The position numbers and the translations under genes are program-made. The notes below the pieces were generated by a model. The model saw nothing but the letters and a program-made list of their open reading frames with translations, made no database searches and was not told the origin of the DNA. Below, one piece after another: positions 7,547 through 48,241 of a stretch of DNA of 57,730 bases. The first letter of the stretch is position 1. Each line of letters starts with the position of its first letter. The DNA is from a virus (Duplodnaviria > Caudoviricetes): positions 1 to 57,730 of the IMG/VR virus record IMGVR_UViG_3300037755_000790; one strand, written 5' to 3'.

Positions 7547-8401
7547 ATGTTAACGGCAAGTAACGACGATCTCCGAATGAGTTACCTCATCGAGCTCCAC
7601 CTCGACGACCTCAGGGCGGCGGGGAAGTCCCCCGCGACGATCGCGGCGAGAAGCAACGTCATCCGCCGCCTCCACGACGCGTTGCCGTTCGGCATCGCCT
7701 ACGGAGCCACCGAACTCATCCAGCAGTGGATGGCCAACCCCGCGTGGGGCCGCTGGTGCCGCGCCACCTACGACTACCACGTCCGCGGCTTTTACCGGTG
7801 GGCCACCGAGTCCGGGATTCTCGACGGCGACCCCACGAAGGCGATGGGGCGCCCAAAACCACCGAGGCTCATCCCCCGGCCCGCGAGCGAAGACGACCTC
7901 GAGCTCCTGCTCGCCCAGGCCGGGGAACCCCTGTTCACCATCGCGGTCCTGGGCGGCTTCGCCGGCATGCGCGTCGGTGAGATGTCCCGCTGCCGGCGGG
8001 AGCACATCACCGAGGAGCGGATCTACATCCCACTGGGCAAGGGCGGCGACCCCGGTACGGTCCCAACCCACCCGTTCCTATGGGAGTCGCTCCGCGACCG
8101 CCCGCCGGGGCTCCTCATCGTCGACCGCCACGGAGAGCCAGTGATCGGCCACTGGATCTCCCAGACGGCGCGGCGTCACCTCGACAAGCTCGGCCTGCCG
8201 GACCTGCACAGCCATCTGCTGCGCCATCGATACGGAACTACCATCCAACGGACATTCGGGAACATCAGGATCACCCAGCAGTGCCTACGTCACGTGCGGG
8301 TGAGCAGCACCGAGGGCTACACGCTCGTCACCAGCGAAGAGTGCGAGACGGCCGTCGCCGCGCTGCCCGTACCAGGAAGGACAGGACCCGCCAGCGCGTA
8401 A
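7547..8401 (+). CDS. int: tyrosine integrase/recombinase (short, 284 aa)
   Basis: GMRVGE (R), GKGG (K), HLLRH (HxxR), LRH, TEGY (Y); AGGGGA RBS. Confidence 0.9.
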   Translation: MLTASNDDLRMSYLIELHLDDLRAAGKSPATIAARSNVIRRLHDALPFGIAYGATELIQQWMANPAWGRWCRATYDYHVRGFYRWATESGILDGDPTKAMGRPKPPRLIPRPASEDDLELLLAQAGEPLFTIAVLGGFAGMRVGEMSRCRREHITEERIYIPLGKGGDPGTVPTHPFLWESLRDRPPGLLIVDRHGEPVIGHWISQTARRHLDKLGLPDLHSHLLRHRYGTTIQRTFGNIRITQQCLRHVRVSSTEGYTLVTSEECETAVAALPVPGRTGPASA

Positions 8402-9205: not shown

Positions 9206-9705
9206 TAACCTCGCCTCGCGCACTGGGTCAGCATCTCCGTGACCGCGTTCATCACGCCGAGGTTCAGTTCGAACTCCATGCTTGTCCCCTTGCCCGCCTC
9301 GGCCAGCTCGGCGAGGTCAAGGGCCATGTTCGCGGCGAACGCGAACTCAAAGATCCCCGACCGGTAGGCGGGGTCGACGGCCTTGGTCAGGGTGGCGCTG
9401 CTGTAGTCGCTCGCGTCGTCGGCCGCCCGCGTGGTGTCGCACGCCTTCGTGGCGTCCGGGTTGGCGTAGTGCGTCGCGGTCGGGGACGTGGTCGTGGATG
9501 GCTGAGCGGGCGTGTCGTCCGGCGAGAAGAGATCAAGCCCGACGGCCACGCCAGCCCCGACGACGCCGACGGCGGCGAGCGTGGCCACCACCACCTTCCA
9601 GGTCGCCACGCCTCGCTTCGGTGCCTGCTGCCACGGTGGTACTCCGGGTACGTGCTGAGGGTTGGGCATGTCACCGGGTACGACGGGGATCGACGGATCG
9701 GTCAT
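9202..9705 (-). CDS. single-pass membrane protein (possible superinfection exclusion)
   Basis: Pro-rich N-terminus, one TM helix, Thr/Pro linker, two Cys. Confidence 0.6.
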   Translation of the reverse strand: MTDPSIPVVPGDMPNPQHVPGVPPWQQAPKRGVATWKVVVATLAAVGVVGAGVAVGLDLFSPDDTPAQPSTTTSPTATHYANPDATKACDTTRAADDASDYSSATLTKAVDPAYRSGIFEFAFAANMALDLAELAEAGKGTSMEFELNLGVMNAVTEMLTQCARRGY

Positions 9706-9762
9706 GTCGTGGAGTGTGGGACCCGGGACACATGATCGCCACGGGACGAACGGCCAGCGCCG

Positions 9763-9792
9763 TGGACACACCCCCGGCATGGAGGGTAGGAT
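9763..9792 (+). promoter_or_regulatory. promoter for a leaderless HTH gene
   Basis: TGGACA-18 nt-TAGGAT, ATG 6 nt downstream. Confidence 0.65.
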
Positions 9793-9798
9793 GTGCGC

Positions 9799-10044
9799 AT
9801 GGGTTGGCGCTCACTCGATGAGTTGCTGGCGTGGCTGGCTGAACGGCCGCCAGCCGAGGCGGTGCGCCTGTCCCGACTTCTCGCCGACACGAAGACCGCT
9901 GGTGCGCTGCGTGAGTACGCGGACCGGATCGTCTACGACATGACGCGTGAGGCGACGTACAAGCGGGTCGGCGAAGAGTTGGCTCTGGGCCGCAAGCAGG
10001 TCATGAGCGCGGTTGAGCGGGAGAGCGCACGCCGTTCCGCCTGA
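9799..10044 (+). CDS. small HTH regulator
   Basis: C-terminal ATYKRVGEELALGRKQVMSAV HTH-like segment. Confidence 0.65.
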   Translation: MGWRSLDELLAWLAERPPAEAVRLSRLLADTKTAGALREYADRIVYDMTREATYKRVGEELALGRKQVMSAVERESARRSA

Positions 10045-10092
10045 TCTGTCAGGTACCCGACATGCGAGGTTGCACGTCCCCTTGTCTTACCC

Positions 10093-10122
10093 TTGCATCC
10101 CACCCCCCATGGGGGGTATAGT
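10093..10122 (+). promoter_or_regulatory. strong promoter with palindromic spacer
   Basis: TTGCAT-18 nt-TATAGT; spacer contains CCCCCCATGGGGGG. Confidence 0.8.
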
Positions 10123-10165
10123 AAGAGGTGTCAGGGGGAAGCGCCCCCGGCAGGAAGGCACCGAG

Positions 10166-10390
10166 ATGAGCACTGTTCAGGCTTGCCACGACAACGGCGA
10201 CTGGTCCTGCTCCGAGCACGGTGGCTGGATCTGCGACCTCGACCACGGGCACGACGGCGACCACCGTTGCGTCCGCTGCCCCAAGCCGATGAAGCCGGGC
10301 TGGTCGAACGCGGCGAAGGCCCGCGCCGGACAGATCGACGCCAGCGAGGCGGCAATGCGGGCCGAGGTCGAGACCTCGCCCGACATCTAG
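10166..10390 (+). CDS. Cys/His-rich small metal-binding protein
   Basis: AGGAAGG RBS; CDLDHGHDGDHRCVRC. Confidence 0.65.
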   Translation: MSTVQACHDNGDWSCSEHGGWICDLDHGHDGDHRCVRCPKPMKPGWSNAAKARAGQIDASEAAMRAEVETSPDI

Positions 10391-10455
10391 TCCTGACCCA
10401 TCCGGGAGGTGCTCGGCCCGCAAGGTCCGAGCATCCCCGAAGCCGTCAGGCCACA

Positions 10456-10474
10456 CCTTGAAAACTCAACAGCG
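10456..10474 (+). promoter_or_regulatory. boxA-like antitermination motif
   Basis: CCTTGAAAACTCAACAGCG resembles the actinobacterial rRNA-leader motif TTGAGAACTCAACAG. Confidence 0.6.
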
Positions 10475-10597
10475 GCAAGGGACGACCGCGGCGAGACGCC
10501 GAGCCCCGGAACCGCCGGGGTAGGGGCAGGTGAGGCAGCGAGAGCGCCCCTGTCCACTACCGCCGCCATCCGAGCGGCCAAGGCCGAGGAGGCCACC

Positions 10598-10768
10598 ATG
10601 ACCGAACAGCTCACCGAACAGCAGGCCCTCGCCAGGGCCGACCACCTCATCGCGGACATCGACTACGCGGAGCGGGCCGGCCTGAGCAGGGACATGGTCG
10701 ACCGGTTGTACCGGATGTTCGACCGGCTGGACGCGAAGGCGATCGCGGCGGGCTTCGGCCCACTGTGA
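10598..10768 (+). CDS. 56-aa hypothetical protein
   Basis: GAGGAGG RBS. Confidence 0.7.
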   Translation: MTEQLTEQQALARADHLIADIDYAERAGLSRDMVDRLYRMFDRLDAKAIAAGFGPL

Positions 10769-10775
10769 CGGTCGA

Positions 10776-10828
10776 GGAGCGAGCACCGGGACCGGCCGGC
10801 GCACCCAGGTTCAAGCCCTGGCGCTCCA
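10776..10828 (+). ncRNA. tRNA-like element 1
   Basis: GGAGCG/CGCTCC-A acceptor-like stem plus T-arm CCAGG-TTCAAGC-CCTGG. Confidence 0.55.
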
Positions 10829-11008
10829 CGCAGCAACGCAGTTAGCCCGGTTAGATGCGTAGAACGGAAACCGGGATGGCCTAGCAGCTGAGCCACGATC
10901 AGCGCGGACGCCCATCACGTGACGAGGGCTAGGGATTCCGCTGAATCTGGAGTAGCCGAGTCGGAGCGACATCCGTGATCGCCGGCCGGGAGCGCATCCC
11001 GGCACCCC

Positions 11009-11096
11009 GTCCCCCACTCACAAGGTGTGAGGTCCGCGAGCAGATGGCGCCGAGCGCGTACTGACACGGACGACGGTTCGATCCCGTTGGGGGACA
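11009..11096 (+). ncRNA. tRNA-like element 2
   Basis: 7-bp GTCCCCC/GGGGGAC stem, CTCAC/GTGAG arm, GTCCG/CGGAC arm with long loop, T-arm GACGG-TTCGATC-CCGTT. Confidence 0.6.
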
Positions 11097-11099
11097 CAA

Positions 11100-11182
11100 G
11101 GGCGGCAGAGGCACTGTCGGGCTCCCGAAGCGCAGAGGCGCGGAGGTCCCCGGCTGGCGGTGTTCGACTCACCGGCCGCCCA
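11100..11182 (+). ncRNA. tRNA-like element 3
   Basis: 7-bp GGGCGGC/GCCGCCC-A stem plus T-arm CGGTG-TTCGACT-CACCG. Confidence 0.6.
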
Positions 11183-11211
11183 CGTAGCAACCCCCGATGA
11201 AGGGAGCACCG

Positions 11212-11457
11212 ATGGACAGTGACTGGAGCCAGCAGTACGACAAGATCTTCGCCAGTGGTCGCCATAGCGGCTACAGCGACGCGGTCACCGAGCTTTGGCG
11301 AATCGCGCATGAGGCGATCGAAGCGGACGACCGGGACCGATACGCGCTGCTTGCCGATCTCGCCCGCGAGATCAGTGGCCGGCGCGCGGCGGTAGAGGCG
11401 AGATTCCTGCACTTCCAGGCCGAGGCGCGCGTCGCGCGGCCGGCCGACGAGTCCTGA
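11212..11457 (+). CDS. hypothetical protein
   Basis: AAGGGAG RBS. Confidence 0.65.
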   Translation: MDSDWSQQYDKIFASGRHSGYSDAVTELWRIAHEAIEADDRDRYALLADLAREISGRRAAVEARFLHFQAEARVARPADES

Positions 11458-11534
11458 CCACTACCGGTGGGGCTCGAGAGCTACCACAGTCCCGAGCCCG
11501 CGCCGTGGCCGTCAGGCCAGGAAGGGAGGCCATC

Positions 11535-11759
11535 GTGGCCACCATCAACAGCAGGTGCTGCGTTCAGTGCGACAACGGCGGGGCCGTAGCGCTGGATGAG
11601 CACGGCGGCGAAGTCGAGACCGTGGCCATGGCGATCGCCGAGGCTGCCGGCTCGCAGGTCTTCAAGCCCCTGCGCGACAACGCCGACGACGCGTCGATCC
11701 GCAACCTGTACCGCGAACTCGCGCAGACCGCGATCGCGCTCACCCTCGACGAGTCCTGA
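11535..11759 (+). CDS. small Cys-containing hypothetical protein
   Basis: AAGGGAGG RBS, GTG start; CCVQC. Confidence 0.6.
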   Translation: MATINSRCCVQCDNGGAVALDEHGGEVETVAMAIAEAAGSQVFKPLRDNADDASIRNLYRELAQTAIALTLDES

Positions 11760-11766
11760 ACCACCC

Positions 11767-11811
11767 GCCCTGACTGGCAGGCACCCGGGTTCAAGCCCCG
11801 GCAGGGCACCA
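11767..11811 (+). ncRNA. tRNA-like element 4 (minihelix ending ACCA)
   Basis: GCCCTG/CAGGGC-ACCA plus T-arm CCGGG-TTCAAGC-CCCGG. Confidence 0.55.
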
Positions 11812-11909
11812 CTCCACAGCCCGTGCGGCAGCCGCGAGAGCGAGCAGCGCCGGGCCGGCAAGTCGCCGCGGGGGCGACTTGCCCCCTACATGGAAGGAGG
11901 TGTCCAGAG

Positions 11910-12485
11910 ATGGATACCGCCAAGATTCGCGCTTTTGTCTCGTCCCGTCGCTTCGCCACCGCATCGTCGGTCGGCATGGTGGCGCTCGTAGCGGGTTACA
12001 ACTCCTACGGGCACCAGTACGACGTGGCGATCATGGCGCACCAGCCGTCGCACTTCGCGGCGGCACTCCCGTTCTCCGTGGACGGGATGCTCCTCGCCGC
12101 CTCGGTCGCCATGGCCGAGGACAAGTCCGAGGGGCGCAGGCCCAGGCTCTGGGCCGTGATCGCGTTCTGGCTGGGTGCCGCTGTGTCGGTGTCCGCCAAC
12201 GTGGCGAGCGTGATCGTGCACTACGGGTTCGACTGGTTGGCGATCGGTGTGTCGGCGTGGCCGCCGATCGCGCTGCTGATCACCGTCGAAGTCTTGTCCC
12301 GCAAGGGCAAGCCGGTGAAGAACCCGAACCGCGTCGAGGGTGGCCGCCGGGCCGCCGCGGCGAGGGCCACGAAGAAGCGGCCGGCCACGCGTCGGCGTAA
12401 GCCGGTGGCCGCGCCGGTCAGCCCCGCCGGGCCGACCAGCAAGCCCGTCCCGACCCTGGAAGAGGTCGAGGCTGCGGTAGCGTGA
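11910..12485 (+). CDS. DUF2637-like four-TM membrane protein
   Basis: SY.H......., LP.SVDG, S..ANV, AWPP.ALL...E motifs; AAGGAGG RBS. Confidence 0.8.
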   Translation: MDTAKIRAFVSSRRFATASSVGMVALVAGYNSYGHQYDVAIMAHQPSHFAAALPFSVDGMLLAASVAMAEDKSEGRRPRLWAVIAFWLGAAVSVSANVASVIVHYGFDWLAIGVSAWPPIALLITVEVLSRKGKPVKNPNRVEGGRRAAAARATKKRPATRRRKPVAAPVSPAGPTSKPVPTLEEVEAAVA

Positions 12486-39195: not shown

Positions 39196-39512
39196 CGGAC
39201 CGCCCCGTTCTCGACACCGGCGAGGATCGCGGTGATCGACGAGATGCACCCGTGCGTCCACTCCACCGACTCCGGCGGCGGTGGAGCCTGGTACAGCATC
39301 GCGTCCACGTTCTTCGACGTTTCCTCGAAGCCCAACTCAAGGTGGTGGTAGCACAGGGAGTTGACGAGCGTCCCGCCAAGGCTGTGACGGCTCTGCGTGG
39401 CCATGCCCTCGCCGGTGTTGACGTAGATCAGCATCAGCAGAAGCCGGCGGGTCTCGTCGAGGTCCCGACGTACAGCCTCGGACAGCGTCGGCTTGCGGCG
39501 GAAGAGGCTCAT
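39192..39512 (-). CDS. hypothetical protein
   Basis: ATGA-coupled. Confidence 0.55.
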   Translation of the reverse strand: MSLFRRKPTLSEAVRRDLDETRRLLLMLIYVNTGEGMATQSRHSLGGTLVNSLCYHHLELGFEETSKNVDAMLYQAPPPPESVEWTHGCISSITAILAGVENGAVR

Positions 39513-40348
39513 GACGCCACCCGCTCGTCCTCGTCGGCGCTGCGCCGCTCGGCTTCACGTTGCGCTTCGATGATCGCCTGCTGCGCCATGTACCGGTCAT
39601 ACGTCAACGAGAACGTCTTGATGTGACCGAGCTTCACGGCCGTGTTCACCCATATGGGGATACCGGCGAAGCCAGCCCGGAAGCAGAACGTGATGTCCTC
39701 GGACATGCGCCGGCCGTAGAAGTCCGTCTCCTGGAACCAGGGGTACGCGTCAGAGAACCCCACCATCCCCGGCCGCTTCGGGGTTCGGAAGTCCCGCACC
39801 CTCGCCAGCACCGACCGGTGGATCAGCAGGCAAGCCGCGCCGGTGGCGTGCACCTCGAACATGGAGTCCAGCGGAAAACGCTTGTAGCGGATGAACTCCG
39901 GCCGCTCCAGCGTACCGACCACGTCATAGAGCGTTGGCTCCAGTTCCGCCGTCTCCGACAGGGTGAAACAAAGGCCGCCGATGATCGGGGCCTTGTCCTC
40001 GTCGGCGAACTCGAGGAGCTTCTCCACGGTGTCCGGCTCGAACGTCATGTCCGAGTCCAGGAACAGCAGCCACGGCGCCGAGGAGTACTTCAGGAACTTC
40101 TCGCACACCTCGTTACGGGCCGCGCTGACGTTCGCTGAGGACACCTGCGACACGAACCCGCCTCGGCCACCGGTCACGTGCTTAGGGCCACGCGTCGACT
40201 CGTAGTCCACGAGGCCCAGGACGGACTCCATGAACTCACCGTTCACGTGACTCGGGCGCACCCAGGCCACGACGACTCCCTCAGCCTCCGCCTCGGCCGG
40301 CTCGTCGCACGCGGACGCGTCGGTGGGACTTACTTCCACTTCGGACAT
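39509..40348 (-). CDS. glycosyltransferase (GT-A, DxD)
   Basis: ARN....FL, LFLDSDM, G..CLLIHR.V, SEDI.FC, GHIK. Confidence 0.85.
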   Translation of the reverse strand: MSEVEVSPTDASACDEPAEAEAEGVVVAWVRPSHVNGEFMESVLGLVDYESTRGPKHVTGGRGGFVSQVSSANVSAARNEVCEKFLKYSSAPWLLFLDSDMTFEPDTVEKLLEFADEDKAPIIGGLCFTLSETAELEPTLYDVVGTLERPEFIRYKRFPLDSMFEVHATGAACLLIHRSVLARVRDFRTPKRPGMVGFSDAYPWFQETDFYGRRMSEDITFCFRAGFAGIPIWVNTAVKLGHIKTFSLTYDRYMAQQAIIEAQREAERRSADEDERVAS

Positions 40349-40457
40349 TAGGGACCTCCAGGTAGGCGGGGTTCCCGGACTCCTGGCGTCCGGGAACCCC
40401 TTCCCACAGGGGCGACCTGTGGGGCACGTCTCGCTCGCTCGGATGAGAAAAGCGAAG

Positions 40458-40474: not shown

Positions 40475-40587
40475 GGCGTGGCATGGCAAGGATGGCTGGG
40501 CCGGGCGCGGCATGGCAGGGCGTGGCAGGCGCGGCTGGGCGTGGGTTGGCGGGGCAGGGATAGGCGAGGCGTGGCCTGGCGCGGCCC
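40475..40587 (+). repeat. GGY-NN pentamer array A (putative guide RNA)
   Basis: 23 units, mostly GGC+NN: GT AT AA (A)T TG CG GC AT AG GT [A] GC TG GT TT GG AG TA GA GT CT GC CC. Confidence 0.9.
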
Positions 40588-40632: not shown

Positions 40633-41181
40633 GTGAGCACAGATCAGCAGGTCTCCGACGACGAGACAGCCGTCGAGACCGAACAGGTCGCCGAGACGCA
40701 GCACCAGCAGAAGGAGCGACTCTCGGCCGAGGAACACGACGCGCTCGAACGAGTCGCGAAGGACGACGTTGACGGGCTCATCCAGCCCGAGATGGTGGTG
40801 GAGATGGCATCGGACCCGGCGTCGCCGCTGCACAAACACTTCGAGTGGGACGACGGCAAGGCCGCACACGCCCACCGGATCGCTCAGGCCCGGTACCTCA
40901 TCGCCCGTTACACGATCACCCGCATCGACGAGGGGCCGAAGTACGTCAACATCACGATCCGCAAGGACGACGGATCGTCGCGCCGCGGCTACGTCGCCGT
41001 GGAACGGGCCGTCGCGGACCCCGACCTCTGCGGCCAGATCATGGCCGACGCGAAGCGAGGGATCGTCGCCTACCGCAACCGGCTCTCGGCCTTCGAACGG
41101 TCACGAGCGGTCGTCGGAGCGCTGGATGAGGCCATCGGTCGCATCGACGAGGTCGTCCAGGACCTGAGCGAGGCGGCTTAG
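40633..41181 (+). CDS. partner protein of the RAMP-like cassette
   Basis: GGGAGG RBS; P..VV..A.DP.SPLH..FEWDD..AA..HR..QAR.LI motif. Confidence 0.8.
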   Translation: MSTDQQVSDDETAVETEQVAETQHQQKERLSAEEHDALERVAKDDVDGLIQPEMVVEMASDPASPLHKHFEWDDGKAAHAHRIAQARYLIARYTITRIDEGPKYVNITIRKDDGSSRRGYVAVERAVADPDLCGQIMADAKRGIVAYRNRLSAFERSRAVVGALDEAIGRIDEVVQDLSEAA

Positions 41182-41183
41182 CC

Positions 41184-41786
41184 ATGCCCGAGATCAGGCT
41201 GGAAGTCGTTCAGCGGGAGGTAATCGACGTCGAGATCATCGGCGTGAGTCCGCTGATCCCGCACAAGTGGTCGGAGAAGTCGCTCCGCATGATGCGCGAG
41301 TCGCAATCCGGCAGCAAGGCCCGCAAGAAGCACGACCCGAAGGTGCCGGTCGACGAGGCCGAAGGGGCGCTGTACCGGCTCGCCGATGGTCGCCCGGCGA
41401 TGCCGGCGACGGCCTTCAAGGCGGCCATGGTCGGCGCGGCCCGACTGTTCCAAGGCGTCACGATGACCGCGCTCAAGGCGGCGGTGTTCGTGCACGGCGA
41501 AGGATCGGACCAACTCGTCCCGATCGAGGGCGAGATGACGCTGCGGGAGGACACGCCGCGCAACGCGACCGGGGTGGCGGACCTGCGGTACCGGTACGCG
41601 TTCTGGCCGTGGCAGACCACGCTCCAGATCGAGTACCTGACCGCGATGGTCGACAAGGACTCGGTCGTCGCGCTCGTCGACGCGGCCGGCAACGGCGGAG
41701 TCGGTGACTGGCGGCCGTCGGCCCCCAAGTCGCTCACGGGGACGTTTGGAAGGTTCCGGGTGGCATCACTCGGCGCTGTGGGATGA
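41184..41786 (+). CDS. RAMP/Cas7-like protein
   Basis: first strand I.G.SPL, P..AFK.A...AA helix, R.R..F..W, and C-terminal Gly-rich loop AG.GGVGDWRP.....G.FGRF.V. Confidence 0.7.
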   Translation: MPEIRLEVVQREVIDVEIIGVSPLIPHKWSEKSLRMMRESQSGSKARKKHDPKVPVDEAEGALYRLADGRPAMPATAFKAAMVGAARLFQGVTMTALKAAVFVHGEGSDQLVPIEGEMTLREDTPRNATGVADLRYRYAFWPWQTTLQIEYLTAMVDKDSVVALVDAAGNGGVGDWRPSAPKSLTGTFGRFRVASLGAVG

Positions 41787-41793
41787 TCGCCCG

Positions 41794-41975
41794 GACGAGG
41801 CGTGGCCTGGCTGGGTAGGGCGAGGCTTGGCAAGGCCGTCAAGGCCAGGAATGGCGCGGCGGGCTTGGCGTGGTAAGGCATGGCACGGCGAGGCGGGGCT
41901 CGGTAGGGCGTGGCAGGCTAGGCGAGGCTGGACTCGGCACGGCATGGCGGGTCAGGGCGTGGAATGGCACGGTGC
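41794..41975 (+). repeat. GGY-NN pentamer array B (putative guide RNA)
   Basis: 37 units: GA GT CT TG AG GA TT AA [C] AA CA AT GC [G] TT GT AA AT AC GA GG TC AG GT [A] TA GA TG TC AC AT GG AG GT AT AC GC. Confidence 0.9.
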
Positions 41976-42009
41976 AGGCCCCGGAGTTTCGGCTCCGGGG
42001 CCTGCTTCG
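41974..42009. terminator. hairpin between array B and the convergent MCP stop
   Basis: GCAGGCCCCGGAG-TTTCGG-CTCCGGGGCCTGC, perfect 13-bp stem. Confidence 0.8.
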
Positions 42010-42012
42010 TCG

Positions 42013-43720
42013 TTATGCCAAGGCCGTGAAGGCCGGAGTGGTGTGCAAGGTCAACATTCTGAAAGCCGCTGGGTCGACCGTGTCTGCCCCCACGCGCCAG
42101 AAGCCATACCACCCGGCCTGGCCGGTCGGCCGCTGGTTCGAGCCCTTGACCATCGGCTCGTACATCATCGAGAACCCGATACGATCGACGATGACGTATC
42201 TCTCGAAGTTGCCAGCAAGCAAAATGTTGGCCGACGTGGTGACCACCGAACCCATGGTGCTGCACTCGTACTGCGGCTGGCCGAGAAGCAGCGACGGGAC
42301 GCCCATGCCCATCGACGCCCAGAACGCGCTGCCGCCACTGGTATCGAACTGGCGGACCAGATTGTAAATCGTTTTGTTCGCAATCCACGACGCCTTGCTC
42401 GCGTCACGAGGACGGAGAGCGTTGGCGACCCGGTACACGTCGCCGGACACGAACGCCGTGATAGTGGCGGACGACACCAGGGACGCGGTGACGGCCGCGA
42501 CAGCGGCGACGATGCCGCGGGGGATGGTCGCGCCGGTGTTCCCGGTCGCGAAGGCGGCCGCTTCCAGGTTGGCCTTAGCGTCGGCCATGAGCATCGACAG
42601 CTCCGACGCGAAGCCCGAATCGGCGAGAACCTCGTAGGAGCCGACAACCCAAGCGTCGGCCTTCTTGGGTGTGATCGTGGGCTGCGTGAAGGTCGGGGAC
42701 GCGTCGGCGGCCTCGGTTCCTTCACCGGTCCATTCCGCCGTGACGCCGGCGCTCGTGACGCCGTTCCAGTCATCGGTGACGATCTGCTTGACCGTCGAGA
42801 TGGACCGGATCGGGTCCTGTGTACCGGCGTTCGTGAGGATGATCGTCGGGTCGAGCGTAAACGGGACGAGATACATTGTTGTTACTCGATACCTTGCGGT
42901 ACCGGGCCCGGTCATTTCTGCCGGGCTCTGCATCTTTTCCATCGATGCAGATCGGACTATATCTTCAGCTCCAGTCCCGACCAGCTATACCGGCTGGGCG
43001 GACCTCTCGGAGTTGCCACGCGTGTAGTCTCTACGGACTCCCCGGTACGGGTTGCCTCGGTATTCCCCTGCTTTGGTGGGGTTCACCGATACAGCGCGGT
43101 TTATTACCTCCGGGTCACCCGCAGAGGACGGCCACTCGACCGCCGTTGGCGCCGGTGAGGGACAGGGCGGCACGCATGAGCTGCCCCGGGTACGTCCCCA
43201 TCGACTGCCAGTACTCCTCGAACTCGCGGTGGTACTCGTCCGAGCCCGTCATCAGCAGGTGGCGGGCGATGCCCGACGTCTGCGGTGACGGCTTGTCGAG
43301 CAGCCGCATGACGTGCTCACGACCCGCGTCGTCCATGTGGCCGGGTGCGATCTCGACGGCCTTCTTCGCCCGCGAGATCATGTCGGCTTTCGGTGCGAGT
43401 TCGGCCCGGACGACCTCGTAGTTGTCGTACGGGTCGACGGTCCGCATGATCTCCGGTCCCTTGCGGGCCAGAGCGGTAGCTCCGTCGCCGGACTCGCGGT
43501 GTGGGCTGGCGAGGACGGCGCTGCGGACAGCCTCCGCCTTCGTCTCCCACGCCTCGGCCTTGGTCCGCTCGGCCTCGAGCTGAGCGAACTCGTCGGGGAT
43601 CTCCTCGGAGCGGGCGATGTCGTCGTCTTCCCAGTCCTGCTTGTCGGTCAGCTCCGCCAGTTCGGCGCGGAGCACCTCCATGTCGGCGGCGTACTCCGCT
43701 GACGTCTTTCGCTTAGCCAC
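42013..43720 (-). CDS. HK97-fold major capsid protein (exons 43139-43720 and 42013-42873; 480 aa spliced)
   Basis: splicing restores NGG|YLVP; W.GE, LLG.P, GNF..Y.IVDRIG, R.G....DP.AF; N-terminal delta domain. Confidence 0.92.
42874..43138 (-). mobile_element. group I intron (265 nt, no ORF)
   Basis: P1 GGCGGU/GCCGUC with U.G at the 5' splice site; core elements GUAUCGGUGAA, AAUACCGAG, GUAGAGACUA, AAGAUAUAGUCC; terminal G. Confidence 0.92.
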
Positions 43721-44474: not shown

Positions 44475-47400
44475 TCATGATGCGAAGACGTCGATGACGC
44501 AGCGGGTGGCCACTTCGGCGGACAGCAGCTCCCCGAGGTCGGGTGCTAGGCGGTCCTGGAGTACGGCCCACGGGGTGGGGGAGGTGGCCCACAGGTTCAG
44601 GCCGTCGCCCTCCGTCCAGAAGGTGAGGTCGGACCGGTAGGTCATCCGCCGCCGATGGGTGCGCCGAGCCGGGGTCGTGGGCGTCTTGGCGCGGGTCATG
44701 GCGGCCATGGACATCAGCGAGTCGGGTGGGTCCTCGTCCATCTCGCGATAGAGGGACACGATCTTGCGTGCCGCTGACCGCTTCTGATCAGCCGACGCGT
44801 CGACGGCGGACAGTCGGCCGGCGGCGGCGTGGACGCCGTTGCGGTTCAGCGTCCCGTCGGGCTCACGGACGGGTAGCTTGCACAGTTCCTTGCTGTACTC
44901 GTCCTGGCCTTCCGCCGGCTCATCGTGGATCAGGCACGCGGCTCGCCACTGCTCGTCGTCGTAGTCGGCCTGCGTGAACTGCGACCACGGGGTGTCCGAG
45001 AACGACCGGGACCGGTACTCCTCGTCGGGTTCCTCGCCCATCTCGGCCGCGTCCTCGACGTCCGTTTCGTCTTCTTCGCCGAGGGGGATGTCGGTCACCT
45101 CGTCGCCGAACGCGACCCGGATGTGGGTCAACGTCACCGGGCCGGCGAGGTCGACGAGGTCCTCGAGCTCGGCCGGGTCGTCGGTGTACAGCAGCGTGAT
45201 GTGCGGATGCCAGGGCGTGTGCTGGTCGGGGAGGTCGAAGTCCAGGTCGTCGATCTCGTCCTCGACGAGGGCATGGGCGGATGCCAGATCCTCACCGGAG
45301 ATGAGGAGGACGTCGCACGGCTCGTCGCCGTTGGGGTTGAACATGGCCAGCGAGAAACCGTCGACCTCGAGCACGTCTTCGAGGTCGTCGGCGACCGTCC
45401 GCGCGGCGTCGATGATGGCGGCACGCTGGTCCTCGTCGTAGTCGTCCGCCTTGCCGAGGAACAGGAGCGTGACGTGGAGCTGGTCGGCGTCCTCCCCACC
45501 TTCGACGGCGAGGCGTTCGAGGTCCGCCGGGGACGGGACGAGGGCGATCATCGCGCCGGTGTTCTCATCCGGGTACTCGGCGCGGGTGATGTCGACGTCG
45601 TCCGGATCGGTGATGGAGCGCTTCGCGTCGCGCTTGAGGAACTCATCGAGCGGAAGGGTGGAGACCAGATACCGGGATGCCGCCTGATGGCCGAGCCCGG
45701 CCGCGATGGCCTCACGGTACTTGTTCGGCCGGCCGTCGTTCGGGTCGGGCAGTTCGACAACCGCTCGGTGCAGAATCTCCTCTAGCCGTTTGGACGTCGG
45801 CGAGGCGACCCCGCGATTCCGGCTGGTCTCCTCATCGATGGCGCGCCCTAGTGCGGCGATGCCGGCCTCCGACCCGACGCCCTGCTGTAGCGCGTGGCGC
45901 AGGTCGAGTTGTGTCGGTTTGGTCAGGCCGTCTCCGCCGGAGAACGCCTTCACGCTGACGCCGAGCTCGCCGGACGTCGCCACCGTAGACGGAGCGGGCG
46001 AGTCGTTGTCGAGGATGGACTGGATGTCCGCCTCAAGTTGGCGGGTGACCGCCCAGTGCGCTGGTTCCTCCCACTCCTCCGGCGACGGCGCGTCGCCGGT
46101 TGTCTCCCGTGCTACCTGGAGTACCCGGTCCCGGTCGGTGCCGCCACCCGTCCGGGCCTGGTAGGCGTCCATCGACTGGAGGATGTGACGGATCCGCGCC
46201 TCGCGTGACCGTGCCGACGACGGGATCGGGGGGAGGTTCAGCGCGACGTTGATGCGCTTCAACTCGGCCGCGGACTTGGTGTGCAGGACCGTTTCGGCTT
46301 CGTCCATCGGGCCGCCGAGAACAGACTCGCGGGCCTTCGGGGCCGCCTTCGCCGGGGATGCCTTGGTGGGCGGGCCGCCCACGGCGTCGAGGCGGTCCGC
46401 GAGTTCGACGTACCTGTCGGCGCGGCCGAGAGCGCCCTGCCGGGTGCCCTGCCGGGGGCTGATCGACGCGACGGGCAGCCTGGCCGCGCCTTCGCGCATC
46501 CCGGCGGCTTCCTCGCGCAACGCGGCGGCAATGGACTTGGGGCTGTCGCCGTCGTCGAGTCGGGCCTGCACCTCGTCGAGTACGCCACGGTCGATGTCCA
46601 TGTCCTTGGCGATCTCGCGGGCGTTCAGACGCGGAGTGGAGTCCGATGGCGTCGTGGTGGTCTTCGGGGCGACCGCCTTGGTGGCAGCCTTCGCGACCTT
46701 CTTTGGCGCGGCCGGCTTGGCCGCGTCGGAAGCGAGGGCCCGCATGGCGACCTTGATCTGGTCGGTGTCTTTGTCCTGCTCGTCCTTCGGCAGCTCGGCG
46801 AAGGGGACGTCCAGATCCCCGCCGGCAGCCCAGTCGTTGCGTGACAGCCACGCCTTGTGGATCTCTTCGCCAACCTCCAGGCGTGTCTTCTCGTCGCTCA
46901 GGTCTACGGTGCCGCCGCGCTGCTTGAGGATGCGCTGGACGACTTCGCCGGCGGCCTTGTTCTCGGCCTGCCAGTCGCCGGGCAGATCGTCGTAGCTGGT
47001 GTTGGCGATGTCCACTTCATCGGAGTCGTGCGCGTCGATCCACTTCTGGTCCTTGGTCTTCTTGACGCGTGGCTCGAATGTCCCGTCCGCCTGCTTGCGG
47101 GTCTTGCGCCAGTCCTCATGCAACGCGTTGGCGATCTTGGCGGACTCGACCTGATCCGCACTCCCAGTCGACTTCTTGGCGGGCGTCGCCTTCTCCGCGG
47201 CGGGCCGCACCGTGTCGTGCGTCGCCGGAACGTTGCCGATGAACGTCTGATCCGGACGGTGTAAAGAGGGGCCGTCGATGTCCCATCCGCCGGGCAGACC
47301 ACGATCGCGGGCGAAGTGCTCCGCGATGTGGAGCTGCAGCGCGCTCTTGGCTTGCAAAATGCCCGGCGGGACGTCGATGCCCAGTCCGTCGGCGACCTTG

Positions 47401-47903
47401 CGGAGCTTCGCTGACGTGAGGCGCGTGTCGCCGCTCAGTAGCGCGATGACCTCGGCCTCGGACTGGGCCGCGGACACCTTGGCCACCGCGTCGGCCACCT
47501 CTACGGCGGCGGCCTGCTGGGCCTTCGTCTTCGCCGCCGGCTTGGCTTCTACCGCGGCCTTCTCCACCGACTTCTTCGCGGGCGCCTTCTTCGCCCCGGC
47601 GGCCTTCATCGCGGCCGGATGTGTGGCGCCCTTCACGCGCTCGGCCTGATACCGCTTCCGGTCATCTGGCGACAGGGCGTCGTACTGCTCCCGCTGCGGC
47701 ACGGTGAGCTTTCGCATGCCCGACGGGATGGTCACGCCGATCGCCAGCCCGTAGTGTGCCGCGCCCTCGGCGCTGATCACCTGCCGGCCGGGGGCCGGGT
47801 TGCTCCTCCCGCCACGGGCGCGCGCGATCTCGCCATCCATCCGCATCCGCACCAGCGCCATCCGCGCCACCGCGCGTGCCCGAGGAACCGTGGACGTGGT
47901 CAT
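44475..47903 (-). CDS. polyvalent head-associated protein with 2H phosphoesterase and RyR-repeat-like domains
   Basis: LHVTL and PHITL (2H); H..W...Y..LP / H..W...VPF.EL...EQ.KD repeats; CKLPV.EP.G.LNRNGVHAAA domain. Confidence 0.8.
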   Translation of the reverse strand: MTTSTVPRARAVARMALVRMRMDGEIARARGGRSNPAPGRQVISAEGAAHYGLAIGVTIPSGMRKLTVPQREQYDALSPDDRKRYQAERVKGATHPAAMKAAGAKKAPAKKSVEKAAVEAKPAAKTKAQQAAAVEVADAVAKVSAAQSEAEVIALLSGDTRLTSAKLRKVADGLGIDVPPGILQAKSALQLHIAEHFARDRGLPGGWDIDGPSLHRPDQTFIGNVPATHDTVRPAAEKATPAKKSTGSADQVESAKIANALHEDWRKTRKQADGTFEPRVKKTKDQKWIDAHDSDEVDIANTSYDDLPGDWQAENKAAGEVVQRILKQRGGTVDLSDEKTRLEVGEEIHKAWLSRNDWAAGGDLDVPFAELPKDEQDKDTDQIKVAMRALASDAAKPAAPKKVAKAATKAVAPKTTTTPSDSTPRLNAREIAKDMDIDRGVLDEVQARLDDGDSPKSIAAALREEAAGMREGAARLPVASISPRQGTRQGALGRADRYVELADRLDAVGGPPTKASPAKAAPKARESVLGGPMDEAETVLHTKSAAELKRINVALNLPPIPSSARSREARIRHILQSMDAYQARTGGGTDRDRVLQVARETTGDAPSPEEWEEPAHWAVTRQLEADIQSILDNDSPAPSTVATSGELGVSVKAFSGGDGLTKPTQLDLRHALQQGVGSEAGIAALGRAIDEETSRNRGVASPTSKRLEEILHRAVVELPDPNDGRPNKYREAIAAGLGHQAASRYLVSTLPLDEFLKRDAKRSITDPDDVDITRAEYPDENTGAMIALVPSPADLERLAVEGGEDADQLHVTLLFLGKADDYDEDQRAAIIDAARTVADDLEDVLEVDGFSLAMFNPNGDEPCDVLLISGEDLASAHALVEDEIDDLDFDLPDQHTPWHPHITLLYTDDPAELEDLVDLAGPVTLTHIRVAFGDEVTDIPLGEEDETDVEDAAEMGEEPDEEYRSRSFSDTPWSQFTQADYDDEQWRAACLIHDEPAEGQDEYSKELCKLPVREPDGTLNRNGVHAAAGRLSAVDASADQKRSAARKIVSLYREMDEDPPDSLMSMAAMTRAKTPTTPARRTHRRRMTYRSDLTFWTEGDGLNLWATSPTPWAVLQDRLAPDLGELLSAEVATRCVIDVFAS

Positions 47904-47956
47904 GCCACCCCCGAACATGGTTGAGCCCCGTTGGAGGCTGAGGAACGGAGGAAGGG

Positions 47957-48241
47957 TCAGTTGTCGAGTAGCTGGGTGACGCGGTCGATCTGCGCCCGGA
48001 CCCACGCGTCCGGGGCGTTGAGCCACGGACCCTCGACGAGTTCCAGCAGGATCGGGCCGCTCGCGTCCGGGTCGAGGCCCGCGCCGTGGTGGGCGAGTGC
48101 GTTGATCAGCGTCCCGATCAACTCGTACCGCTTGGTGCGGCCGGCGTACAGCGCGCCGTACAGCAGCCGGCGGGTCTCGTCGAGGTCCTTCGACTTCGAC
48201 GCGTCACGCGTCGTCAGCGTGTAGTCATCCCACGCGGCCAT
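47957..48241 (-). CDS. hypothetical protein
   Basis: GGGAG RBS. Confidence 0.6.
   Translation of the reverse strand: MAAWDDYTLTTRDASKSKDLDETRRLLYGALYAGRTKRYELIGTLINALAHHGAGLDPDASGPILLELVEGPWLNAPDAWVRAQIDRVTQLLDN

Follow-up and report, generated by a model that had tools for sequence, protein, structure and literature searches.

A probable VIPR system in a phage from an environmental sample, with repeat-array guides that match capsid genes of its own lineage

The window, that is, the whole stretch of 57,730 bases of viral DNA analysed here, very probably carries a VIPR system, made up of a Vipr protein, an accessory gene and two vrRNA arrays, which would act against kin that superinfect or are co-resident, silencing their capsid gene and sparing the allele of the phage itself. 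The arrays, the RAMP fold of the protein encoded between them, its link to the Vipr of phage SUSP1, the pairing of gene and array in other phages, the matches on both strands that skip the wobble base and the exact matches in other phages are observed; the ribonucleoprotein filament, the binding of double-stranded DNA and the repression are taken over from the accessible parts of recent preprints, and would apply here by analogy. The feature is real, and the kind of system is one that has already been published, in preprints of 2026.

VIPR (Viral Interference Programmable Repeat) is described in these preprints as a phage-versus-phage system (10.64898/2026.04.26.720920). As set out in the main text of that source, it consists of an ancestral RAMP protein of about 20 kDa (Vipr), an accessory gene (vap) and vrRNAs of 9–16 GGY/NN repeats; the target is double-stranded DNA, read on either strand and with no PAM, one base being skipped per repeat, mostly the wobble base; the effect is transcriptional repression, the natural targets lie in competing phages and satellites, and silencing was abolished when the NN pairing was disturbed (10.64898/2026.04.26.720920). 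The example studied is the type II system of Escherichia phage SUSP1 (10.64898/2026.04.26.720920; 10.64898/2026.04.26.720927; 10.64898/2026.10.15.759431), and the companion preprints, to judge from the parts available, deal with the filament and triplex structure and with the conflict with satellites (10.64898/2026.04.26.720927; 10.64898/2026.10.15.759431).

Layout of the arrays and of the genes between them

The stretch at 41794-41975 on the + strand is a run of five-base units, each with a constant triplet and two variable bases (NN), and a second run of the same kind lies at 40475-40587, also on the + strand; in both arrays the constant triplet is GGC, at times GGT and rarely a degenerate triplet. 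These runs, designated array B and array A, respectively, are the only period-5 GGC chains of the window, and a seven-unit GGC pattern with up to 2 mismatches found 21 matches, all within the two arrays, and 0 in 100 shuffles. At intervals the phase slips by one base, giving three segments in array A and four in array B, which range from 4 to 12 units; the coordinates of the segments were worked out by hand from the parsed repeat output. This slip at the junctions fits the 'staggered arrays', with neighbouring vrRNAs overlapping by 1 nt, that are named in the legend of fig. S18 of the main VIPR preprint (10.64898/2026.04.26.720920). The two arrays flank two genes on the same strand, 40633-41181 and 41184-41786, and the cassette directly adjoins the capsid gene, in convergent orientation. 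Its parts are the following.

40475-40587, + strand: vrRNA array A, 23 GGY/NN-type units, in segments A1 (40475-40494), A2 (40495-40528) and A3 (40529-40587)
40529-40587, + strand: guide A3, with NN equal to the sense codon positions 1-2 of the capsid motif AWVFGSYEVLA
40633-41181, + strand: candidate vap (VIPR accessory) gene, 182 aa, phrog_15946 (PHROG E 1.1e-27)
41184-41786, + strand: vipr gene, 200-aa RAMP (Cas7/Csm3-like) protein, phrog_4652
41794-41975, + strand: vrRNA array B, 37 units, in segments B1 (41794-41838), B2 (41839-41862), B3 (41863-41916) and B4 (41917-41975)
41863-41916, + strand: guide B3, with NN antisense to the capsid codons T-L-D-P-T-I-I-L-T-N
41917-41975, + strand: guide B4, with NN equal to the sense codon positions 1-2 of the capsid motif YECSTMGSV(I)T
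41974-42005, + strand: strong hairpin closing array B, 14-bp stem and tetraloop, present in the MFE and the centroid fold

The hairpin is probably a terminator shared by the convergent VIPR and capsid transcripts; a simple terminator scan and a promoter consensus scan found nothing. Two GC-rich hairpins at 40366-40421 stand between a glycosyltransferase gene (39509-40348, − strand) and array A, and a TANNNT-type, −10-like hexamer was seen by eye about 20 nt ahead of the first unit of array A, where the promoter consensus scan found none.

Several other readings of the repeats were considered and dropped. Binding by a TRAP-like ring protein that accommodates 11 triplets is out because the number of units per segment ranges from 4 to 12; G-quadruplex repeats, like a translated pentapeptide repeat, would leave the codon-register matches on both strands unexplained; and a pac or small-terminase site, an idea raised by a low-GC phage in which the cassette stands before the large terminase gene, fails because the cassette lies elsewhere in other phages.

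The 200-aa protein of about 20 kDa encoded between the arrays belongs to a PHROG of unknown function (phrog_4652) and has no Pfam family. Its AlphaFold (AF2) model, built from 23 homologues, reached a pLDDT of 82.5 and a pTM of 0.80, and the best PDB matches of this model in Foldseek are Csm3/Cas7 proteins of type III and type VII complexes (E 2e-6, probability 1.0, TM ~0.5). A profile of 23 members of the family found PDB entry 36pp_D, 'SUSP1 Vipr protein' (202 aa), as its sole PDB match at E<=1; this match is weak and local (E 3.3e-4, 23.6 bits), covering the C-terminal 46 residues, with the glycine-rich motif that is invariant in the family. The family is large: a word-indexed search gave 797 proteins, and 2,762 cluster representatives fall at E <= 1e-3. 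It takes in 'hypothetical proteins' from 27 Mycobacterium and 5 Gordonia phage records.

The upstream gene, 40633-41181, is a candidate accessory gene of the vap type. Homologues of its 182-aa product adjoin the RAMP gene in other loci, and no Pfam family was found over the cut-off. The AF2 model (pLDDT 83.5, pTM 0.47) gave no fold match in the PDB with Foldseek (best E 0.26), and no vap1-6 class can be assigned from it.

Guide matches in the capsid genes of the window and of its relatives

The capsid gene lies on the opposite strand just beyond array B and is interrupted by an intron; the gene and the guide sites in it are as follows.

42013-42873, − strand: exon 2 of the HK97-type capsid gene (Pfam Phage_capsid, E 5.7e-39), boundary set by alignment to uninterrupted homologues
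42874-43138, − strand: group I intron of the capsid gene, ~265 nt, with no ORF, Rfam RF00028
43139-43762, − strand: capsid exon 1 (N-terminal part), ORF aligned to homologues
42830-42858, + strand: guide B3 site, starting 15 nt into exon 2
42623-42654, − strand: guide A3 site, 19/22, sense, in codon frame
42236-42270, − strand: guide B4 site, 18/24
43260-43273, + strand: site of the first units of guide A2, at the exon 1 motif IARH, weak and not significant alone

The original prediction had been confined to the middle segment of array B, whose NN string it aligned to the capsid gene next to the intron. Parsing into GGC/GGT and NN units returns the same string, and the alignment to the + strand at 42830-42858, with two bases read and one skipped, holds with 7 of the 10 dinucleotides exact and 17/20 bases identical. 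This is the single best match in the window when both strands of all 57,730 bases are searched, nothing else exceeding 14 (the runners-up stay below 15 on the + strand and reach at most 13 on the − strand). The prediction had named failure against shuffled controls as what would refute it; none of 500 order-shuffles of the ten B3 dinucleotides reached 17/20, their best genome-wide scores being 13 (n=124), 14 (n=297), 15 (n=69) and 16 (n=10).

That a low-complexity repeat resembles GC-rich coding sequence by chance deserves consideration here since a single segment had been put forward, in a layout freely chosen, and since exact matches to a 20-base pattern do arise by chance in very large collections. 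Multiple testing was controlled by scanning every 10-unit window of arrays A and B (23 and 37 units). With one base skipped, 2 distinct loci score at least 17/20, against a mean of 0.083 in shuffles of the NN pool (none in 278 of 300 shuffles, one in 19 and two in 3), and both real loci fall within capsid exon 2, which measures 861 nt. In the same scan the other layouts stay at or below 16 (zero skip) and 15 (two skips), and so the layout of two bases read and one skipped, in which NN was proposed to be read against codon positions 1-2 of the opposite strand, is the only one that gives significant matches; the skip falls on the wobble base in every capsid match found, again as predicted. Together with the four exact 22-base matches of guide A3 described below, all at homologous capsid codons, the 0/500 shuffles and the mere 3 of 300 pool shuffles with at least two loci, here both in one short exon, make chance an exceedingly improbable explanation.

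The 22-base pattern of guide A3 occurs exactly (22/22) in 4 viral contigs, each time at the homologous capsid codons AWVFGSYEVLA; the gene of the window itself has V where the guide has F, and a serine TCC where the guide and the four contigs have AGC. The proposal that a guide may be aimed at a variant allele is thus borne out by a sister guide, which is exact in the capsid genes of four other phages and inexact in its own. For B3 itself, the allele of the type TLDPSVILTN that had been expected as its exact target was not found in any capsid gene in viral contigs, metagenomes or genomes: the exact pattern has 0 matches in the viral contig collection, and the 3 metagenome and 2 genome matches elsewhere lie in contexts unlike capsid flanks. 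The best natural match of B3 is 19/22, in contig L005, where the motif reads TLDPTVILTN.

Guide B4 had 0 exact targets and reaches 21/24 in two relatives (L010/G006 and L011/G007), where the shuffle maximum is 18. The first units of A2 are antisense to the IARH motif, with 4/5 units exact in the gene of the window and 5/5 in four relatives (L004 and L010-L012); genome-wide, A2 scores 11/14, no better than the shuffle mean of 11.3. For segments A1, B1 and B2, targets were sought in capsid genes and related genomes and none was found, B1 having 0 matches in 5 related records even when 3 mismatches were allowed. The guides A3, B3 and B4, of 11-12 units each, all map to one gene, the capsid gene, A3 and B4 in sense and B3 (as well as A2) in antisense, all in codon register.

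Three related phage records with no array of their own were searched whole: G006 (61.7 kb) and G007 (40 kb), which are complete or near-complete genomes, and G008. In G006 and G007 the capsid site is the genome-wide best match for each of A3, B3 and B4 and lies above all 100 shuffles, with scores of 20/24, 18/22 and 21/24 in G006 and 19/24, 18/22 and 21/24 in G007 (shuffle maxima 18, 17 and 18, respectively, in both); in G008, a more distant relative, no guide rose above the shuffles. The capsid family of the relatives has 65-80% protein identity to that of the window, and among 8 capsid genes that of the window is mid-range as a match to the guides, not the worst-matched, with 3-6 mismatched bases per guide for A3, B3 and B4.

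Since the fit of the guides to the capsid genes of close relatives equals or exceeds their fit to the own gene, the matches point to a temperate phage that would silence the capsid gene of its kin. The lifestyle is probable from a tyrosine integrase domain at 7961-8335 of the window (+ strand, PF00589, E 1.3e-10). Following the mechanism published for VIPR in the accessible text of the preprints, Vipr protomers would polymerise along the vrRNA, burying each GGY and presenting each NN, and double-stranded DNA would be read by the NN pairs, one target base in three being skipped. Guide B3 would then read the antisense strand of the capsid codons TLDPTIILTN, with the skip at the wobble base, and guides A3 and B4 would read two further capsid motifs on the sense strand; the guides being presumably expressed, the capsid gene of relatives would be repressed and the own gene would escape through its 3-6 mismatched bases per guide. 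The sparing of the own allele is suggested by one feature, the absence of a perfect self match; that no guide is perfect on the phage itself and one is perfect on other phages would fit kin-directed exclusion by a temperate phage.

A different use of the same guides would be self-regulation, in which they act on the capsid gene of the phage itself, for instance in silencing the late operon of a lysogen or in timing capsid synthesis, with 3-6 mismatches tolerated. Two guides do reach 85-86% NN identity on the own gene, above the 80% threshold of the preprint for calling targets, the phage appears to be temperate, and the cassette directly adjoins the capsid gene in convergent orientation. Against this stand the perfection of A3 in other phages and its imperfection at home, the scan of six other phage genomes with a Vipr gene, where self matches are not in excess (0, 0, 0, 1, 1 and 0 loci, with 0.1-1.5 expected), and the loss of silencing on disturbed NN pairing described in the main text of the preprint (10.64898/2026.04.26.720920), so that self-regulation as the role of the guides is improbable.

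The intron matches RF00028 over the full model, positions 1-253, with E 7.2e-9; its score of 40 bits is below the gathering score of 50, at which an Rfam search of the whole window found nothing. Assignment to group I, given this score, follows from the match to the core model and from the exons, which rejoin to an intact gene of homologue length; the last base of exon 1 is U and that of the intron G, and in 5 of the 5 relatives examined the capsid gene is uninterrupted at the intron codon. The first codon of the B3 site ends at 42858 and exon 2 starts, on the − strand, at 42873. The statement that the B3 site and the intron share a highly conserved stretch of the gene is upheld by the alignment of 8 capsid proteins, where the ten columns reach a conservation of 0.96 and rank at the 90th percentile of windows. 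A preference for conserved sequence is common to introns and to guides that skip the wobble base, and is enough to explain their nearness; no functional link between the two was found. The intron, lying 15 nt from the B3 site, may be tied to the conflict with kin, and may equally reflect this shared preference.

Codon families were compared in an alignment of the window with the capsid genes of L004-L007 and L010-L012. In the serine columns (TCN/AGY) the window differs from the majority in ~7 of 21 conserved positions over the whole gene, compared with 4/23 leucine and 1/17 arginine columns. Serine codon switching as a mark of self-avoidance was rejected, the two cases inside guide footprints being unremarkable given the gene-wide rate. 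In this capsid family, differences between TCN and AGY serine codons are unusually frequent.

Occurrence of the gene and array pair in other phages

A GGC period-5 array on the strand of the gene is present in 46 of 49 viral-contig loci that encode a Vipr relative. Among these 46 are loci whose proteins share only 23-26% identity, as well as a low-GC phage whose GGC units are conspicuous against an AT-rich background. The three exceptions are one locus with a GTC-based array (L028, 11199-11381) and two (L029 and L043) with none in the stretch examined. In the phages Saal (L001, 3588-3850), Pipp (L002, 4612-4840) and ODay (L003, 4626-4792) a GGCNN array directly adjoins the homologue. In the published records of these three phages the Vipr homologue is a 'hypothetical protein' and the cassette is unannotated; the array of Pipp is itself annotated as gene 43, and the call of gene 51 of Saal has a 5' extension into the array. 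A Vipr gene with adjoining GGCNN arrays is shown in cluster F mycobacteriophages and Gordonia phages.

In the actinophage clade guides are divided by the one-base slip, and in distant clades by a short constant delimiter. In three of the distant loci (L055, 6411-7107; L061, 10670-11113; L032, 10220-10507) the guides have 8-19 units, each closed by a degenerate unit and two bases, and some of the guides of distant clades recur across different contigs. In the low-GC phage L038 the region 9500-12249 holds, in order, a consensus-looking promoter and vipr, then one array, a 192-aa gene from a different family and another array; the large terminase gene follows directly. GGC units persist there although the genome is AT-rich.

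The position of the cassette varies, lying in the early region in Saal, in the tail region in ODay and before the terminase in L038, and near-identical cluster F mycobacteriophages (L014, L016-L019 and L001) differ by whole inner segments and by single NN changes. In these arrays the first two segments and the last are common to all, and the turnover of the inner ones resembles that of CRISPR spacers. Such mobility of the cassette, and the gain and loss of whole segments between near-identical phages, would be expected if the cassette of the window were relic cargo, acquired horizontally from a related phage, with guides that mirror the competitors of the donor and perhaps no current role. This origin is nonetheless unlikely, as the guides match precisely the capsid family to which this lineage belongs (protein identity 65-80%), while the guides of 161 chains from other loci match this family only at shuffle level, with 3 matches of at least 17/20 compared with 1-12 in ten shuffles. 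The lineage-specific capsid matches, with those of other loci at shuffle level, indicate that the content of the guides fits the ecological neighbours of their carrier.

Broader target searches gave no signal. The 14-base seeds of all 3,850 units, searched in 0.94 Mb of loci, found 22 matches, the chance level (mean of 19.6 in 20 shuffles); of two conserved cluster F guides, neither has an exact match in viral contigs, and one has only 8 matches in genome contigs, in unrelated taxa. The array of Saal matches its own genome at 1 locus of at least 16/20, with 1.1 expected. Megablast of the locus against the phage collection found no match.

Relation to known guide systems and implications

The cassette shares with the SUSP1-type VIPR system, as far as the accessible text describes it, a small protein of ~200 aa with a RAMP/RRM fold and a glycine-rich loop, a second small gene, co-directional GGY/NN repeats on either side of the genes, a skip of 1 nt that falls on the wobble base, matches on both strands, targets in competing mobile elements and a phage-borne locus; the sequence relation to SUSP1 Vipr adds to these, through the weak, local profile match. 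The original reading of the segment as a guide is strengthened by a Vipr-type RAMP as its 200-aa neighbour and by the same targeting rule in the main text of the preprint (10.64898/2026.04.26.720920).

The two systems also differ. The arrays of the window are continuous, with a one-base slip and no recognisable invariable structured 3' tail between segments, and their segments have 4-12 units compared with the 9-16 described; the missing tail counts against a type II system and not against VIPR, because the slip fits the 'staggered' arrays of the preprint. The target here is the major capsid gene of the own lineage, whereas the published targets, in the parts of the preprints seen, are a satellite recombinase, lysis-lysogeny regulators and other vipr genes. 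No self match at or above 80% NN, which is also the target-calling threshold, is reported for the sets of the preprint (10.64898/2026.04.26.720920, in its accessible parts), in contrast to the window, where two guides exceed this value on the genome of their carrier (A3 19/22 and B3 17/20). The main text of that preprint (10.64898/2026.04.26.720920) contains none of the words capsid, Mycobacter- and Actino-, and its supplements may cover the clade, the type and capsid targets.

With the backbone proteins of class 1 CRISPR-Cas complexes (Csm3, Cmr4 and Cas7 of types III, VII and I) the RAMP protein shares the RRM/RAMP fold with its glycine-rich loop, and the two kinds of system have in common one protomer per guide repeat and periodic breaks in the pairing of guide and target. 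The period is 5 nt with 2 read here and 6 nt with 5 read in CRISPR, and the guides of the window are hard-wired, not acquired. In tandem-repeat, ORF and family surveys the window has one RAMP gene and no repeat-spacer array, cas1/cas2, Cas5/Cas6/Cas10 or large subunit. Guides carried by a virus against essential genes of close relatives are also known from mini-CRISPR arrays and other virus-borne guides; these, unlike VIPR, rely on Cas proteins of the host and on contiguous spacers.

A kin-directed form of VIPR, in which an actinophage-like temperate virus holds at least 3 hard-wired guides against the most conserved capsid parts of its own lineage, each only 3-6 bases away from self, is a tentative proposal, less probable than its negation. 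If it were true, self and non-self in VIPR would be set by a few neutral or conservative amino-acid changes at codon positions 1-2, such as serine TCN/AGY and leucine CTN/TTR switches or V for F, and the guides would drive codon-family turnover of that kind in capsid genes. Under this proposal, partial repression of the own late gene in the lysogen is also conceivable. The window offers a natural case in which the targets of VIPR are a structural gene of close kin, near to self, and such capsid targets allow natural alleles to be used for testing how far VIPR tolerates mismatches and whether a target escapes by serine, leucine or arginine codon-family switches. It also places VIPR in a high-GC, integrase-bearing phage of an environmental sample, and gives an instance of its noncontiguous code that was found from the raw sequence and that ordinary shuffle controls can verify.

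Elsewhere in the window, just upstream of the prohead protease, a 1183-aa ORF (44475-48026, − strand) contains a 2H phosphoesterase or 2'-5' RNA ligase-like domain at residues ~846-961 (Pfam PF13563, E 2e-7).
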